This document shows, piece by piece, positions 1 through 47,245 of a DNA stretch of 64,000 nucleotides (the first letter of the stretch is position 1; each line of letters begins with the position of its first letter). The notes beneath the pieces are model-generated. The model worked only from the letters and a program-made list of their open reading frames with translations. It did no database searches and had not been told where the DNA came from. The stretch is from Candidatus Gottesmanbacteria bacterium (lineage in GTDB: Bacteria; Patescibacteriota; Microgenomatia; UBA10105; UBA927), in NCBI GenBank assembly GCA_023245335.1, contig JAHFKK010000001.1, positions 427,282 through 491,281 of the forward strand, in the 5' to 3' direction. The position numbers and the translations under genes are program-made.

Positions 1-27
1 ATATAATATGTATTTATCGTTACACAT

Positions 28-2739: not shown

Positions 2740-2767
2740 TTGACAAGGAGAAATAGTGATATATAAT
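2740..2767 (+). promoter_or_regulatory. sigma70-type promoter for rpoB (TTGACA-16-TATAAT)
   Basis: TTGACA at 2740-2745 and TATAAT at 2762-2767, about 100 nt upstream of the rpoB ATG. Confidence 0.5.
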
Positions 2768-2792
2768 AATGACTAATTGAATAGCCCAAGAG

Positions 2793-2819
2793 GCGAACGT
2801 TCATTGTTCGCTTCTTTTT
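2793..2819 (+). terminator. leader hairpin plus U-run (putative attenuator) in the rpoB 5' UTR
   Basis: GCGAAC-gttcatt-GTTCGC stem-loop followed by CTTCTTTTT, between the promoter and the rpoB start. Confidence 0.4.
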
Positions 2820-2868
2820 GTCGTTCTTTCCAATTTTTACAAACCGGTCTTGTATTTCAAAGGATTGA

Positions 2869-5800
2869 TTGATGGCATCTAAATCAACTTCACATAAGCG
2901 CGAGTTTTGGGGAACGGACTTCCCGGACCTTCCAAGACTGGATCTGACATTGGTACAGCGCGAGTCGTACCAGTGGTTTCTGGAACGCGGAATCAAGGAA
3001 CTCCTCGAAGAAGTGACCCCCATGACCGATTTCACCGGCAAGAACTGGGAACTCACCCTTGGCGATTATTACTTCGGACGACCACGCCTCACCCCGGAAG
3101 TCGCCCAGGAAAAAGGACTGACCTACGACATGCCTCTCAAAGTAAAAGCAACCCTCACCAATAAACAAACAGGCCACCAGATGTCCCAGGAAGTTTTTTT
3201 GGGTGACATCCCGTCCATGACGGAACGCGGCACTTTTGTGATAAACGGTATCGAGCGGTGTGTGGTCAACCAATTGGTCCGGTCACCGGGCATCTACCTC
3301 ACCGGAGAAGTGGATCCTACCACGGGACGTACATTATATAGTGCAGAGATCCGGCCGATGCATGGCAGTTGGCTCGAATTTTTCATTACCCGAAACGACG
3401 TTCTCATGGTTAGGATAGACCGCCGTCGCAAGTTCGTTGCCTCCACCTTCCTTCGTGCAGTCGGCTATGGCACGAACGAGGAAATTGAACGGATACTGAA
3501 AGACGCCGACACGAACCCGGATCACCAGTTTACCAAGGCAACGCTTGCCAAAGATACGACTACCAACCAAAACGAAGCAGTCCTTGAACTCTACCGCAAA
3601 CTTCGCCCGGGAGAGCCCATCGTCCTTGATAATGCTCAGGAGCTATTGCGGACGATGTTTTTTGACTATCGCCGCTATTCACTTGAGCGTGTAGGACGCT
3701 ACAAGATGAATAAAAAGCTAAAATTGAATGTCGCAAACGAAAAAGCAAACTGGGTTCTCACCAAAGATGATATCGTTGGCGGTATCCAGTACCTCATGAA
3801 TCTCGCGAACGGTAAAGGGGATGTCGATGATATCGATCACCTGGGAAACCGTCGGGTACGCCGTGTCGGCGAGCTCGTAGCAACCAATGCATTCCGCGTA
3901 GGTTTATTGCGTTTGGAGCGTTCTATCCGGGAAAAAATGAGCTTAGCAGGTCCCAATGCCGAAGACCTTACCCCGAGTCATCTGGTCAATGCGCGACCGA
4001 TTATCGCATCCATTAACGACTTTTTCCGTACCTCACAACTTTCGACCATCCTCGACCAAACGAATCCCTTAGCAGAAATAGACAACTTGAGAAGGCTTAC
4101 GGTTATGGGTGTCGGCGGTATTTCCCGCGAGCGCGCAAGCTTCTCTATCCGGGACATTAATGCATCCCAATACGGCCGTGTCGATCCGGTCAGATCACCG
4201 GAAGGACCGAACATCGGATTGGTCACCTACATGGCGCTCTATTCACGGGTCAACGAATACGGATTCCTGGAGACTCCCTATAGGAAAGCCGAAAAAGTGA
4301 GCCATGGCGGCACACAAAAAGTACGGGTGACCGCCGCGATAGAGTACCTTGATGCCAACGATGAAATGTATCACTACATCACCCACGCAGATTTGCCGAT
4401 AGACGGTGACGGATTTATCACGGGTACGCGTGTTCCGGTCCGGTACAAAGGCGAATTTTTGGAAACAGACGCTTCCAATATCGAATACATAGACATCGTA
4501 CCGCGACAGGTGGTCGGCGCTCCGGCATCTCTTATTCCGTTTTTGGCCCATGACGAGGCTAACCGGGCGCTTATGGGTACGCACATGCAATGTCAGGCAG
4601 TCCCTCTTTTGGTCCCGCAGTCACCCATCGTGGGTACGGGTATGGAGGGTGCTGTCGTAGAAGCTATGGGACGGTTAGTACGGGCCAAAGATGACGGAGA
4701 AGTGATCTATGCGGATGCGGCTCTCGTCAAAGTGAAGTACAAAAATGGAGATATAGCAAGCTATATGCCGGAAAAGTTTAAACGTACCTCGCAATCAACG
4801 TGTTATAACCAAGAAGTATTGGTCGAGATCGGCCAAAAAGTGGTGAAAGGCGATGTGCTTATCGAAGCTCCAGCATCAGAAAACGGCGAACTCGCACTCG
4901 GCACGAACCTCACGATTGCATACATGAGCTATGAAGGGTTGGGGTATGAAGATGCTATCGTCATTTCCGATCGTCTGGTCCGTGATGATGTTCTCACATC
5001 CGTCCACATAGAAGAGCATGAATGCAGTGTCGTCGACACCAAACTGGGACCGGAAGAAACGACACGGGACATCCCCAATGTCGGAGAAGAAGCACTGCGA
5101 AATCTGGATGAAAACGGCATTGTGGTCATAGGCGCAGATGTAGGACCCAATGACATTCTGGTCGGAAAAATCGCGCCGAAAGGCGAGACGGAACTGACGG
5201 CAGAAGAGCGTTTGCTTCGTGCCATATTCGGTGAAAAAGCCCGTGAGGTCCGTGACACATCGTTGCGTTTGCCGCACGGAGAGCGGGGTACGATTATCGA
5301 TGTTGCGGTTCTTGATAAAGAAAAAGGCGATGAGTTGGAACCGGGCACAAACCGCAAGATTATCGTCAAAGTCGCACAAATGCGTAAAGTCGTCGTCGGA
5401 GACAAGCTTGCCGGCCGACACGGCAACAAAGGCGTCATTTCCAAGATCGTCAAGTCCGGCGACATGCCGTACCTCGCAGACGGAACGGTTATCGACATTA
5501 TCATTTCTCCGCTTTCCGTTCTTTCCCGTATGAATTTGGGACAACTTTTGGAATCACACCTGGGGCTTGCTCAGTCGAAGCTGAATCTCCGAGTCGCATT
5601 GCCGGTTTTCGAACACGTTTCGGAAGAGCGCATGGTCGGTCAGATAAGTAAAGCGAATTTGCCGCTTTCCGGCAAGAGCACCCTCTACGACGGGAAAACC
5701 GGGGAACCGTACAAAGAGCCCATCGTCGTCGGTATCGGGTACATCATGAAGCTTATCCACATGGTCGAGGACAAAACACACGCCCGGTCAACCGGTCCGT

Positions 5801-44882: not shown

Positions 44883-45434
44883 ATGGCAGAAGATACCAAA
44901 ACACCGGTAGAAAAAACAGAAAAAGTGGTAACGGCCAAGAAAGCTGAAAAAGCCGAAGTGGTCGAGAAGACGGAAAAAGCGGAAAAGACGACAAAAGAAG
45001 CGGTGTCATATTATGAAGCGGTCGGACGCAGGAAAAATGCATCCGCACGCATACGTCTCCACGTCGTGAAAGAAGAATCAGTCACTGTGAGCGGCGTCAC
45101 CGTAGAAAAAGGCGGCATGATCGTGAACGGGCGGCCGGTAGAGAATTATTTCCCCGGTGAAGTTGCCAAAAAGATGTATCAGGAACCATTCCGTACCACC
45201 AATACGATCGGGCGGTTTGCCGTAACCGTCGTAGTCAATGGCGGAGGACCCTCCGGACAATTGGGCGCGACTATTCATGGTCTCTCACGGGCACTTGTGA
45301 AAGTAGACAAGGAAAAATTCAGGCCGATATTGAAAAAGCGCGGTCTCATGACGCGGGATTCCCGGAAGAAACAACGCATCAAAGCAGGATTTGCCCACAA
45401 ATCACGCGCGCGGAAACAATCTCCGAAACGATAA
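44883..45434 (+). CDS. rpsI: 30S ribosomal protein S9 (with Lys/Glu-rich N-terminal extension)
   Basis: C-terminal KAGFAHKSRARKQSPKR. Confidence 0.93.
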   Translation: MAEDTKTPVEKTEKVVTAKKAEKAEVVEKTEKAEKTTKEAVSYYEAVGRRKNASARIRLHVVKEESVTVSGVTVEKGGMIVNGRPVENYFPGEVAKKMYQEPFRTTNTIGRFAVTVVVNGGGPSGQLGATIHGLSRALVKVDKEKFRPILKKRGLMTRDSRKKQRIKAGFAHKSRARKQSPKR

Positions 45435-45437
45435 CGT

Positions 45438-46025
45438 TTATTTTCCTCCCGATCGCTGTATAAAATCCTTGAGAAGCTGTTGTTGCGATTGTTTGGAAAG
45501 CAGCTTCATCCCGCTTCGTTGTTTAGTGATCTCCCACAACGTGATTGCCGTTGCGACCGATACGTTGAGGCTCTGTACAAATCCCATCATGGGGATCAGG
45601 ATTATTCTGTCAGCAAAGGTCAGCGCACCCTCCGACAGTCCGCGGTGCTCATTGCCAACCAGTACGGCGATTTTCTTTTCGGGAAATGTCGCCGTCATCA
45701 ATGATTCTGACCGGTTTGTTAGTGCCGTGGCGATAGTCGTATACCCGTCATCCTTTAGTTCCCGGAGGCAGGCTTTCGTTGATGTGAATGTTTTGAAGTT
45801 CAGCCATTTGTTGGCCGAGGAACTCGATGACTTGCCGATTTTTGCGGGGTTATACGTTTCTTCTTTTTCAAAAATGAAGTAGACATTCTGAATGCCCAAG
45901 GCGTCACACGTCCGAAGGATTGCTCCTGCATTATGCGGATCGTGGATATCCTCAAGTACTACGATAAATCCAGATTGCCTTTGAGATACAACTGAAGTGA
46001 TTTTTCGTTTGCGCGCATCGTTCAT
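45438..46025 (-). CDS. SpoU/TrmH-family RNA 2'-O-methyltransferase
   Basis: SpoU motifs (LVGNEHRGLS, IPMMGFVQSLNVSVATAI); start trimmed to M27 (46025) because the ORF-track N-terminus overlaps the tRNA. Confidence 0.8.
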   Translation of the reverse strand: MNDARKRKITSVVSQRQSGFIVVLEDIHDPHNAGAILRTCDALGIQNVYFIFEKEETYNPAKIGKSSSSSANKWLNFKTFTSTKACLRELKDDGYTTIATALTNRSESLMTATFPEKKIAVLVGNEHRGLSEGALTFADRIILIPMMGFVQSLNVSVATAITLWEITKQRSGMKLLSKQSQQQLLKDFIQRSGGK

Positions 46026-46035
46026 GAAACGCTTG

Positions 46036-46109
46036 TCGGGGTGGGCAGACTTGAACTGCCAACCGCTCGCACCCCATGCGAGTGCGCTAGCCAATTGCGC
46101 CACACCCCG
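46036..46109 (-). tRNA. tRNA-Pro (anticodon GGG)
   Basis: Hand-folded cloverleaf: 7 bp acceptor with C1-G72, U8, 4 bp D-stem, anticodon loop AUGGGGU, TTCAAGT T-loop, A73 discriminator; CCA not encoded. Confidence 0.8.
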
Positions 46110-46110
46110 G

Positions 46111-46362
46111 TTAAAAATTCTCTAAAATTATTTTTTTAAACTTTTTCCCTACGCCAGTTTTTAAATATTTTTCTCTTCTTAGTGCATCTTCCTTACAGAC
46201 AAAAGATTCATAGTACTTCAGCTCAAATGGACCATTTGCCGATGTCCACTGATTTGACCCCGTATTATGTTCTCTTAACCGTTCTGACGGATGTTTTCCA
46301 GTACTTCCCACATATGATTTTCCATTGCTAATACTAACCAAAACGTATACATACCACAACAT
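46111..46362 (-). CDS. small GIY-YIG nuclease-domain protein
   Basis: YVYVLVS ... GKSYVGSTGKHPSERLREHN; stop codon 1-2 nt upstream of the tRNA-Pro 5' end; start set at M18 because further upstream overlaps the repeat and hairpin. Confidence 0.6.
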   Translation of the reverse strand: MLWYVYVLVSISNGKSYVGSTGKHPSERLREHNTGSNQWTSANGPFELKYYESFVCKEDALRREKYLKTGVGKKFKKIILENF

Positions 46363-46405
46363 ACAAATCCAATTGTCGTCCAGAGGACGATCAGCCTCTG
46401 GCTGA

Positions 46406-46417
46406 CGCCACACCCCG
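46406..46417. repeat. 12 bp direct repeat of the tRNA-Pro 5' end (CGCCACACCCCG on the + strand)
   Basis: identical to 46098-46109; the two copies bracket the GIY-YIG gene; a 7 bp-stem hairpin CCAGAGG-acgatcag-CCTCTGG lies at 46381-46402. Confidence 0.5.
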
Positions 46418-46471
46418 AGTCCTTGTATTCTACCATTTTTTGTGTAAGAATGAGACTCATCTTACGCACGT

Positions 46472-47245
46472 ATGGCTATTTCTCCTCTACTTGTCATTAT
46501 CGGGATACCGCTTTTTATATTCATTGTTTTTTCTCTCCGCATCCTGCAGGAATATGAGCGGGGAGTCATTTTTTTCCTCGGAAGATTAACGGGCGTCCGG
46601 GGACCCGGTATCATTTTGTTGTTTCCGTTTCTGGAAACGATGACGAAAGTGGGACTCCGGACCGTGACGATGGACATCCCGTCGCAAAAAATTATTACCA
46701 AGGATAACGTTTCCATCGATATCGCAGCAGTTGCGTATTATCACATCAGTGATCCTTCCAAGTCAGTCGTTGCGGTAGAAAACGTCGAGTACGCCGTCAA
46801 CCAAATCAGTCAGACGACTGTACGAAACGTCGTCGGGCAGTTTATGCTGGATCAGCTGCTTTCCAAAACGAAAGATATCAATGCGCAGATCGGGACGATT
46901 ATCGATCAGCATACCGAACCATGGGGGGTACAGGTGACTGCAGTCGAAATTAAAGACATCACCCTACCGGACAACATGCAGCGGGCTATGGCCAAAGAAG
47001 CCGAAGCGGAACGTGAACGCCGCGCCAAGATTGTGGCAGCCGAAGGAGAATTTCAGGCGGCACAAAAGTTAGGAGAGGCCGCTGATCTCATCACCCAGCA
47101 CCCGGTAGCCCTGCAGCTGCGGACGCTTCAGACGATGGCGGAAATAAGCACAGAGAAGAACTCAACGATTATTTTTCCCGCTCAGTTCATGACCACAGTT
47201 ACGGAAGCGCTGAAGACGTTGAAAGCGGATTCGTCAGCTAAATAA
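46472..47245 (+). CDS. SPFH/band-7 (stomatin-like) family protein
   Basis: N-terminal TM, SPFH core, Ala/Glu-rich coiled coil. Confidence 0.8.

Follow-up and report, generated by a model that had tools for sequence, protein, structure and literature searches.

The GIY-YIG protein SegB of phage T4 is a free-standing homing endonuclease encoded within a tRNA gene cluster. It reads the conserved motif GGTTCRANTCC in the T loop and cuts many tRNA genes, among them those of T4 itself (PMC2330249). Segmental amplification driven by SegB is reported in a further article (PMC13096335). Prokaryotic Slx1-like proteins, which belong to the same superfamily, consist of the minimal domain without accessory domains (PMC1564403). 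Fungal mitochondria carry double-hairpin elements (DHEs), short GC-rich units of two hairpins that are suspected to be mobile (Paquin and Lang, cited in PMC10085805); they are described from intergenic regions and structural RNA genes, with near-identical copies across species. In bacteria of the candidate phyla radiation (CPR), rRNA genes contain non-intron insertion sequences with GIY-YIG open reading frames (ORFs) (PMC11270868), and group I introns are known from tRNA genes of Patescibacteria (PMC13011429). Here we describe a locus in a 64,000-nt stretch of the Candidatus Gottesmanbacteria contig JAHFKK010000001.1 (positions 427,282 to 491,281), referred to below as the window; all counts of uniqueness in the window refer to these 64 kb. 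At this locus a gene for an 83-amino-acid (aa) GIY-YIG protein stands directly ahead of a tRNA-Pro(GGG) gene, and a second copy of the 5′ part of the same tRNA, split by two adjacent hairpins, stands on the other side of the ORF. We read this arrangement as a mobile, selfish cassette nested in tRNA genes, and give this reading a probability of about 0.7.

An initial annotation, made from the sequence of the window, had proposed an intact tRNA-Pro(GGG) gene on the minus strand, preceded by a GIY-YIG ORF. The tRNA was called by both ARAGORN and Rfam; the Rfam tRNA model was matched over its full length, at a score (Table 1) to be compared with a gathering score of 29, and no other tRNA was found by ARAGORN in the window. 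The ORF was also confirmed, and only the base 46110 separates its stop codon from the first nucleotide of the tRNA. A 100-aa version of the ORF starts with GTG at 46413 and reads through the repeat, so the longer N-terminus is an artefact, as had been supposed. The repeat itself was noted as 12 nt of the tRNA 5′ end. These 12 nt are exact, but the true extent of the repeat is 19 nt: the orphan copy comprises tRNA nt 1–19 at 100% identity and is split after nt 12 by exactly 30 nt, and 6 nt (46363–46368) lie between its second part and the start codon of the ORF. The sequence CGGGGTGTGGCG occurs in exactly two copies in the window (46098–46109 and 46406–46417, spaced by 308 nt). When one mismatch was allowed, three sites were found against 0.30 expected, a number reached in none of 100 shuffles. 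A chance match of a 12-mer beside an ordinary small gene would have nothing in its favour except the shortness of the repeat; it is excluded by the shuffle test, by the 7-nt continuation and by the recurrence in tens of loci described below, and we consider it scarcely conceivable.

The hairpin that had been noticed beside the repeat is present as well, but it consists of two 15-nt palindromes, each with a 6-bp stem and a 3-nt loop, and not of one hairpin. This double-hairpin motif has no second copy in the 64 kb (0.02 expected; none of 100 shuffles reached the observed count). The window contains one GIY-YIG ORF and one hairpin pair, and the two adjoin. The ORF is compositionally foreign: its GC content is 33.7% against 49.7% for the window, below that of every sampled 252-nt stretch of the window, and its GC at third codon positions is 28.6% against 53–61% in the neighbouring genes. 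The ORF likewise has a lower GC content than its flanks in 21 of 22 loci.

Table 1. Features of the cassette and of the tRNA gene that follows it (window coordinates).
Feature	Position	Strand	Remarks
Intact tRNA-Pro(GGG)	46036–46109	−	Rfam tRNA 57.9 bits, E 1.7e-11; ARAGORN 46035–46109
GIY-YIG mini-gene	46111–46362	−	ATG 46362, TAA 46113–46111, 83 aa
Orphan tRNA fragment, part 2: CAATTGG	46369–46375	−	exact tRNA nt 13–19
Double hairpin TCAGCCAGAGGCTGA + TCGTCCTCTGGACGA	46376–46405	strand-neutral	between tRNA nt 12/13 of the orphan copy
Orphan tRNA fragment, part 1: CGGGGTGTGGCG	46406–46417	−	exact tRNA-Pro nt 1–12
Promoter-like extended −10 box TGGTAGAAT	46427–46435	−	9 nt upstream of the orphan tRNA start

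The same order of parts was found at many other tRNA genes. A word-index protein search gave three homologues (59–71% identity), all with a tRNA 5′ piece, hairpins, ORF and tRNA in this order. One genome per GTDB species was scanned as well, which yielded 24 loci with this layout, mostly from CPR bacteria (Curtiss-, Gottesman-, Levyi-, Roizman-, Moran-, Woese- and Beckwithbacteria) and some from Omnitrophota, and a metagenome scan gave 224 relatives, from which 80 loci (63 distinct) were retained. Together with the window, the genomes and metagenomes make up a pooled set of 89 distinct ORFs. The loci were collected by means of peptide patterns near those of the window protein, so the sample is biased towards tRNA-Pro and tRNA-Val and towards CPR bacteria, and many loci are cut by contig ends.

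A tRNA on the same strand directly follows 59 of the 89 distinct ORFs. Among the 57 ORFs whose upstream sequence reaches 120 nt or more, two or more hairpin units stand within these 120 nt in 50, and an exact copy of the beginning of the downstream tRNA stands upstream of the ORF over at least 11 nt in 34 and over at least 17 nt in 16. The upstream region was aligned with the tRNA in 25 cases (the genome loci, L001–L003 and the window). The typical alignment covers tRNA nt 1–12 or 1–17, then a gap of 30 nt, and then nt 13 or 18 up to nt 19–28; examples are L006 (1–17 and 18–27), L010 (1–17 and 18–28) and the window (1–12 and 13–19). The end of the orphan piece varies between nt 19 and nt 63 among these 25 alignments. 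GIY-YIG genes beside tRNAs with duplicated tRNA segments, for which the initial annotation had suggested a search in the rest of the genome, were found in these other genomes and metagenomes at dozens of different tRNA genes. The target tRNAs are of nine types (Pro, Val, Lys, Asp, Ala, Asn, Gly, His and Met) with 14 anticodons. The nearest relative of the window ORF, at 71% identity, stands at a tRNA-Val, and the nearest ORF neighbour shares the tRNA type in 37 of 66 cases, against 19 ± 4 in shuffles. The relatedness of the ORFs therefore tracks the tRNA type only partly.

The ORF and the tRNA are closely joined. The stop codon of the ORF is located inside the tRNA in 42 of the 59 loci and 0–10 nt ahead of it in 12. 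In the 42 overlapping loci the reading frame runs into the tRNA and stops at the TAG of the conserved U8-A9-G10 (for example L010 3240, L007 2497 and L003 1895); the window ORF has its own TAA because its tRNA reads TGG at nt 8–10. An RNase P cut at +1 of the overlapping loci would leave a non-stop mRNA, which might, as a speculation, act as a brake on expression and keep a dangerous enzyme at a low level. At three loci without an ARAGORN call, the ORF is followed by a tRNA-Asn that is broken by a group I intron (L013 3189–3524, L104 1689–2024 and L026 3310–3550; RF00028, 75–83 bits). The position of these introns agrees with the 35/36 site known in Patescibacteria (PMC13011429), and the orphan pieces of L013 and L015 end at nt 35, the same position. 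Two kinds of invader are therefore present in one tRNA-Asn gene. The window cassette itself contains no group I intron, as only the tRNA matched Rfam in 45400–47000 at E ≤ 1. Many contigs end no more than a few hundred bases from the cassette (for example at L002, L003, L005, L010, L015, L021, L027 and L047), which points to a failure of short-read assembly at the duplicated tRNA pieces and hairpins.

The translated ORF matches Pfam PF01541 over residues 20–90 of the 100-aa version (E 5.2e-16; 59 bits against a cutoff of 22.6). The residues Y6, Y17, R28, H32 and E64 are invariant across 21 sequences and, from the alignment to BH0048, would be the active-site tyrosines of the GIY and YIG motifs, arginine, histidine and glutamate of a GIY-YIG nuclease. 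An AlphaFold2 model built from a four-sequence alignment (predicted local distance difference test score 93.8) shows the β-β-α-α-β-α fold of this superfamily, with strands at residues 3–10, 16–21 and 46–54 and helices at 25–34, 38–43, 57–68 and 70–82, and Foldseek matched it to GIY-YIG structures. BH0048, several Slx1 nuclease domains and At-HIGLE were ranked ahead of UvrC and I-TevI. The template modelling scores were 0.65–0.68 for Slx1 (root mean square deviation 1.9–3.2 Å, 31–34% identity) and 0.68 for At-HIGLE, against 0.45 for UvrC and 0.42 for I-TevI. A profile of the four sequences matched the UPF0213 structures 1zg2 (E 1.1e-6) and 1ywl (E 3.4e-6), and Slx1 weakly. The protein is thus predicted to be a minimal GIY-YIG nuclease of the Slx1/UPF0213 type that consists of the catalytic domain only. 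It lacks the two-domain architecture of I-TevI and the Seg proteins (about 200–250 aa), since the ORF has 83 aa and encodes no DNA-binding domain, and the NCBIfam model for group I intron endonucleases gave 25 bits against a cutoff of 56. The suggestion of a tiny, homing-endonuclease-like GIY-YIG cassette is supported, with the correction that the nuclease belongs to the Slx1/UPF0213 type and not to that of I-TevI.

The ORF is under purifying selection with an intact active site. The ratio of nonsynonymous to synonymous substitution rates (dN/dS) is 0.06–0.19 in unsaturated ORF pairs, and premature stops are found in 3 of 88 distinct ORFs. A HMMER search over 1.84 billion representatives gave 8,635 clusters (50% identity) at E ≤ 1e-3, of which 1,355 passed E ≤ 1e-10; nearly all are 80–130 aa long, and the named members of this family include Nomurabacteria and Margulisbacteria. 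PADLOC gave no match to a defence system, and the matches to ‘homing endonuclease’ in PHROGs were weak only. A phage origin was considered and rejected, as 2.9 million viral contigs of IMG/VR contained three weak relatives only (32–43% identity).

For the hairpin module, 95 distinct hairpin pairs were compared together with their flanks. Their consensus, TCnnCC-ArA-GGnnGA followed by TCnnCC-TyT-GGnnGA, reads alike on both strands. The positions T1, C5, C6, A9, G10, G11, A15, C20, G25 and G26 are invariant in an alignment of 29 sequences. The nn positions vary yet remain complementary within the unit; 98.9% of the cells are paired, a percentage partly built in by picking the pairs for palindromy (at most two mismatches). 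Changes on both sides occur in 7 of 12 pairs, with 64 double-change cells against 14 in shuffles (none of 500 as high). The occurrence of such units at the homologous place ahead of nearly every ORF is not built in by this selection. G-U pairs are almost absent, and this scarcity together with the strand symmetry fits a DNA site for a symmetric protein, or extrusion of both strands, and not an RNA element. A single long hairpin formed across the two units (CCAGAGG/CCTCTGG) was rejected for want of covariation and because 12 of the 29 central pairs are disrupted.

The double hairpin is an integral element of the system and closely tied to the ORF: 119 of the 122 hairpin pairs lie no farther than 300 nt from an ORF match, while such regions make up 27% of the 317 kb surveyed. 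One of the three distant pairs, L023 4930–4959, is located 2.2 kb from the ORF and has no recognisable tRNA origin. The insertion points are fixed in tRNA numbering: 52 of the 95 pairs stand at 17/18 (CAGTT/GG) and 23 at 12/13 (GCT/CAG), and the remaining ones are mostly at 8/9, 13/14, 29/30 and 55/56 (GGTT/CRA), the last of these at L001, L012 and L019. A T ends the 5′ flank in 88 of 95 cases, and the window (GCG/CAA) is the single case with G. A CNNNG motif of the I-TevI type was tried as the common feature of these sites and discarded; it fits GCT/CAG and the CCnnnGG centres, but not 17/18, 55/56 or the GCG/CAA of the window. The window pair is the exact reverse complement of L007 2202–2231 and one base off the reverse complement of L006 2952–2981. 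At the syntenic L006 locus the pair stands at 17/18, against 12/13 in the window. Either the hairpin segment flips, or the two commonest stems occur in both orders. The inverted repeats at both termini and the short target-site duplication of a transposon or of a miniature inverted-repeat transposable element are missing in the window, where the hairpin pair is one-sided and no duplication flanks the 30-nt insert.

Besides the forward arrangement seen in the window, a mirror class was found. In this class an intact tRNA is followed 1–2 nt later by the ORF and then by a broken copy that lacks nt 1–12, bears the hairpin pair at 17/18 and extends to nt 76 (examples are L044, L058, L077, L080, L094, L101 and L108). 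The two classes number 59 forward and 9 mirror. Both can be written as insertion, at the hairpin site, of a hairpin, a tRNA part, the ORF and the complementary tRNA part. Tandem arrays of broken tRNA, ORF, broken tRNA and ORF occur at L043, L067 and L110, and tandem units or two ORF copies per locus were seen at L043, L067, L080, L089, L100 and L110. Longer orphans, which reach nt 35 or the T loop and contain more hairpins, are present at L012, L013, L015 and L019. At L001 the ORF and an intact tRNA-Val are enclosed by the 5′ part (GGGCTCA...) and the 3′ part (...TGAGCCC) of a different tRNA. The acceptor strands of these flanking pieces match each other, and their hairpin pairs stand at 17/18 and 55/56. 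Broken tRNAs with hairpins only lie next to intact tRNAs at L007 and L025. Decayed ORFs are found as well, with in-frame stops at L006/L039, L044 and L105 and a broken C-terminus at L025. Foreign tRNA parts are present at L044, similar to those at L034.

The hairpins and the kinship of the protein also bear on a second account, in which the same mobile cassette encodes a nuclease that cuts its own double hairpin and not empty tRNA genes. The palindrome pair would be extruded as a cruciform (a four-way junction) or as single-strand hairpins and resolved by the Slx1/HIGLE-like enzyme, and the break beside the ORF would drive copying, inversion, tandem amplification and transposition into other tRNA genes. 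The hairpin would then be the end or recognition site of the element, as in REP/RAYT, the ends of IS200/IS605 and the mitochondrial double-hairpin elements. That junction and flap nucleases (Slx1 and At-HIGLE) are the closest structures, with I-TevI and UvrC far weaker, agrees with this account, as does the lack of a DNA-binding domain. The covarying stems with their invariant positions (T1, C5, C6, A9, G10, G11 and A15), the near absence of G-U pairs and the identity of the two strands would suit such a site, although the pairing statistics are inflated by the selection on palindromy, stems of 6 bp are short for cruciform extrusion, and the window segment folds only mildly better than its shuffles (z −2.1 as DNA and −1.0 as RNA). 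Hairpin pairs stand on both sides of the ORF and tRNA at L001, whereas they are one-sided in the window and at most loci. The tandem arrays and the inversion of the hairpin segment between the window and L006/L007 would also be explained. Taken as a whole, we hold this account to be unlikely.

The locus was then compared with orthologous loci, which were located via the neighbouring SPFH protein; the identities given here are those of SPFH. Related genomes without the ORF, proposed earlier as a check for the empty site, were found. L121 and L123 (93%) have the promoter, a 53-nt AT-rich leader and tRNA-Pro(GGG), and L028 and L029 (92%) have the promoter, a 36-nt leader and the tRNA; neither pair has an ORF. 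L031–L033 (90%) also lack the ORF, and an orphan tRNA piece with two hairpins precedes their intact tRNA. In L031 (2804–2975, minus strand), as in L032 and L033, the order is orphan nt 1–22, two hairpins and nt 23–34, and the 11-nt leader CATACATATTT is duplicated ahead of the intact tRNA. Farther upstream in L031, a CGGGGT stub and a 38-nt imperfect palindrome stand right after the promoter. From its sequence, the L031 arrangement appears to be an ORF-less scar. In L034 (88%), again without ORF, the tRNA begins 10 nt past the promoter block. The region 2740–2941 (minus strand) contains an intact tRNA-Pro(GGG) with a different, new T arm (GCTCG/CGAGT), and the old T arm and acceptor end stand 7 nt downstream, with an 87-nt hairpin-rich insert at 55/56. 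This probably represents a 3′-side version of the same replace-and-orphan process, without the ORF. In the more distant Gottesmanbacteria L006, L011 and L018, the ORF is present at tRNA-Pro(GGG) beside RecA/SPFH. Gain, rearrangement and loss have thus recurred at this locus.

The orphan piece of the window occupies the place where the tRNA starts in the ORF-free relatives, about 8–10 nt past the TGnTAGAAT box. The block TTACACAAAAAATGnTAGAATACAAG around this box is conserved in the window, L006, L028, L031, L034 and L121, and in the ORF-free relatives it directly precedes the tRNA itself. Because of this conservation ahead of the tRNA, the TGGTAGAAT box is presumed to be the native tRNA promoter, which would now drive the orphan piece, the ORF and the tRNA. 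A simple sigma-70 scan gave no match at the box, and the scan for sigma-70 promoters and terminators found nothing. The tRNA is presumably co-transcribed with the ORF and released by RNase P.

In another explanation the gene is not mobile now and encodes a host housekeeping or repair nuclease that is expressed from tRNA operons by chance, with the tRNA-like piece and the hairpins as a cis-acting RNA leader that mimics the 5′ part of a tRNA (for stability, processing or translational control). The overlap of ORF and tRNA in 42 of 59 loci suggests coupled processing, the orphans of the window, L011 and L018 each match their own tRNA exactly although these tRNAs differ from one another, and prokaryotic Slx1-like proteins have been seen as repair factors passed on by vertical descent (PMC1564403). 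A leader of this kind is contradicted by the mirror class, where the hairpin-bearing piece follows the ORF, by the ORF-less orphan and hairpin scars and the broken pieces on the 3′ side, by the variable extent of the orphan and by the strand-symmetric hairpin pattern. The purifying selection and the presence of the ORF over a long time at the Pro(GGG) locus of Gottesmanbacteria would suit a housekeeping gene, but the closest relatives lack the ORF, there are pseudogenised copies, and the ORF is of foreign composition. We regard this explanation as very improbable.

We propose the following route for a mobile cassette. It builds on the anatomy, its recurrence, the linkage of hairpins and tRNA, the fixed positions, the patchy presence, the decay, the foreign composition and the purifying selection described above, and on the foreign tRNA segments seen in some intact copies; nuclease activity, cut site, repair route and co-transcription are steps that we infer. 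The segment 46110–46405 would be the cassette, comprising the double hairpin, tRNA nt 13–19, the GIY-YIG ORF and the restored 5′ end of the tRNA. The resident tRNA gene would have been broken in the D arm, with its promoter and first 19 nt left as the orphan. The host would lose nothing, because a complete tRNA is reconstituted right after the ORF. The ORF, lacking a promoter of its own, would be read from the tRNA promoter in one transcript, from which RNase P would free the tRNA. The 83-aa nuclease would break tRNA-gene DNA at the D loop or D stem (12/13 and 17/18) or at the T loop (55/56), where the hairpins are found. Recombinational repair would use the short tRNA segments around the donor hairpin and ORF as homology and copy the hairpin and ORF, often with the whole or a part of the donor tRNA, into the cut gene. 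The side of resolution would decide between broken tRNA, ORF and tRNA, as in the window, and tRNA, ORF and broken tRNA. Later deletion would trim the broken copy, so that the orphan ends between nt 19 and nt 63, or remove the ORF.

The claim of the initial annotation that a mobile cassette had entered the 5′ part of the tRNA gene, with duplication of a tRNA segment, was supported by all comparative tests run. As is typical of homing genes, the insertion is absent from the same site in relatives (L121, L028, L031 and L034), and a cycle of invasion, degeneration and loss can be seen in the in-frame stops, the disrupted L025 and the L031 scar. The fixed hairpin positions and the precedent of SegB would indirectly favour site-specific cleavage with one-way gene conversion. 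This specific route of target cleavage, that is, homing, is a tentative proposal, for which we judge the chances to be somewhat below even.

Several points weigh against a mobile homing cassette. Its cleavage and movement rest on inference. The intact tRNA beside the ORF retains the presumed target, and the immunity of the carrier locus is unexplained. The protein consists of the catalytic domain only and has no DNA-binding domain, unlike the characterised GIY-YIG homing enzymes. A simple single crossover predicts more mirror than forward loci, the opposite of the numbers seen (59 forward and 9 mirror). The strong purifying selection would also fit a gene that is useful to the host, and the richness of the protein in Lys, Asn and Tyr may partly account for the low GC content. 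The alignment of the window with L006, whose ORF contains an in-frame stop, runs without a break through the ORF at 73% identity, and the cassette may therefore have been resident at this site for a long time. Finally, the leaders of L121, L028 and L031 aligned locally to the window cassette no better than shuffles did; the best alignment was that of L121, and 15 of 300 shuffles scored as high. These sites are accordingly not taken as scars of the window cassette.

A more far-reaching interpretation, which we put forward as possible though on balance improbable, is that the 83-aa protein and the symmetric double hairpin form an unrecognised class of autonomous mobile elements in CPR tRNA genes, and possibly in rRNA genes too. 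Instead of reading a sequence as a homing enzyme does, the nuclease would resolve junctions or hairpins, either in its own module or in tRNA-gene DNA that has taken a cloverleaf fold, and hairpin-only insertions would be non-autonomous derivatives. If this were true, a part of the UPF0213/YhbQ family would be selfish DNA and not repair machinery, and the fungal mitochondrial double-hairpin elements would have a bacterial equivalent whose enzyme can be identified.

The neighbours of the cassette are rplM, rpsI and the genes for SpoU, SPFH and RecA. No integrase or transposase is adjacent to it among the genes at the locus, as had been noted before. Transfer RNA genes are well known as sites of integration, an event that leaves part of the tRNA as a direct repeat. 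The repeat could thus be regarded as the leftover att-site duplication of an integrase-mediated island or prophage. However, the whole insert has about 300 nt (308 nt) and no integrase neighbour, the repeat is at the 5′ end of the tRNA and not at the 3′ end, the unit of about 300 nt recurs elsewhere, and the 2.9 million viral contigs contained the three weak relatives only. An origin of this kind is extremely improbable.

The SpoU/TrmH-type methyltransferase gene (45438–46025, minus strand) begins 10 nt past the tRNA. Its true start is the ATG at 46025, which gives 195 aa as in the relatives; the 221-aa version begins inside the tRNA, so the SpoU N-terminus of the ORF list had rightly been called an artefact. 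In the public gene calls (45438–46103 and 46275–46469 of the window, minus strand; L119/L120), SpoU is stretched to 221 aa, the GIY-YIG ORF is missed, and a spurious 61-aa ORF spans the orphan piece and the hairpins. The exact GIY-YIG protein is absent from the protein database because these calls miss the ORF. A GIY-YIG-TrmH fusion is mentioned in PMC1564403, and database entries of this kind could be products of read-through, as in the gene calls made here. A functional link between the GIY-YIG protein and SpoU was dropped as an explanation, as SpoU adjoins this tRNA in ORF-free relatives too, and the adjacency therefore looks like ancestral synteny. On the Curtissbacteria contig of L001, a PF05635 gene (23S rRNA intervening-sequence protein; 554–925) lies between pheS and pheT and is unrelated to the cassette.

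The findings suggest a role and a testable substrate for a minimal GIY-YIG family that has been labelled as of unknown function since its structures were solved in 2005. They also indicate how very small genomes could tolerate a parasite in essential single-copy tRNA genes: partial gene duplication would make the insertion harmless. The cassette would also explain recurring annotation errors at such loci, in which the nuclease is missed, its neighbours are over-extended through the tRNA and contigs are broken. As a compact system of a 250-nt gene, a 30-nt DNA module and tRNA homology, the cassette offers a testable case of targeted insertion next to tRNA genes.

Among the known systems, the cassette resembles SegB in that a GIY-YIG gene stands among or next to tRNA genes, many tRNA genes are potential targets, the carrier genome keeps cleavable sites (the same paradox as in T4), and the gene is absent from close relatives. 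SegB differs in its 221 aa, which we take to include a DNA-binding part, in being phage-borne and in having neither a duplicated tRNA piece nor a double hairpin, whereas the cassette protein has 83 aa, is Slx1-like and is encoded on the chromosome of CPR bacteria. In our own reading, the tandem arrays recall the segmental amplification reported for SegB (PMC13096335). In sequence (E 1e-6 and 3e-6) and fold, the protein is like the UPF0213 proteins (BH0048, 1zg2; EF2693, 1ywl; Escherichia coli YhbQ), Slx1 and At-HIGLE. The UPF0213 and Slx1 proteins differ in being regarded as vertically inherited repair or junction nucleases, and in the searchable literature no tRNA nesting, hairpin module or mobility is described for them.

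The hairpin module agrees with the description of DHEs, since two adjacent hairpins form one unit with compensatory changes, in pairs that were selected for palindromy. This likeness is one of description; DHEs are mitochondrial, dispersed and without a linked nuclease gene, whereas pairs of the window type almost always lie within 300 nt of a GIY-YIG ORF and within tRNA-derived sequence. Integrative elements that target tRNA genes rebuild the end of the tRNA, and the insertion in the mitochondrial atp6 gene of Allomyces, a mobile endonuclease ORF, reportedly carries a replacement piece of its target gene. In both, the displaced part is supplied or regenerated, the insertion is harmless and an orphan fragment is left, as at our locus. 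The cassette differs from them in that its target is a tRNA 5′ part of 12–28 nt (sometimes the whole tRNA), that it has no integrase and that a hairpin marks the break.

The insertions in CPR rRNA genes (PMC11270868) and the introns in Patescibacteria tRNA genes (PMC13011429) occur in the same bacterial group, also invade structural RNA genes and in some cases encode GIY-YIG proteins. No tRNA-flanking GIY-YIG genes, tRNA duplication or hairpins are mentioned in these two articles, and the window cassette differs in being no group I intron and in lying outside the functional RNA. The full-text literature searched, with most subscription journals missing from it, yielded no account of GIY-YIG genes that have duplicated tRNA pieces and hairpins at their flanks. 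The cassette would tie together the tRNA targeting of SegB, the mitochondrial double-hairpin elements and the GIY-YIG ORFs of the CPR rRNA insertions. By family, its protein belongs to the Slx1/UPF0213 branch of the GIY-YIG superfamily; by behaviour, the cassette seems most similar to mitochondrial mobile ORFs that supply a substitute for part of their target, and to a free-standing homing endonuclease gene such as that of SegB.

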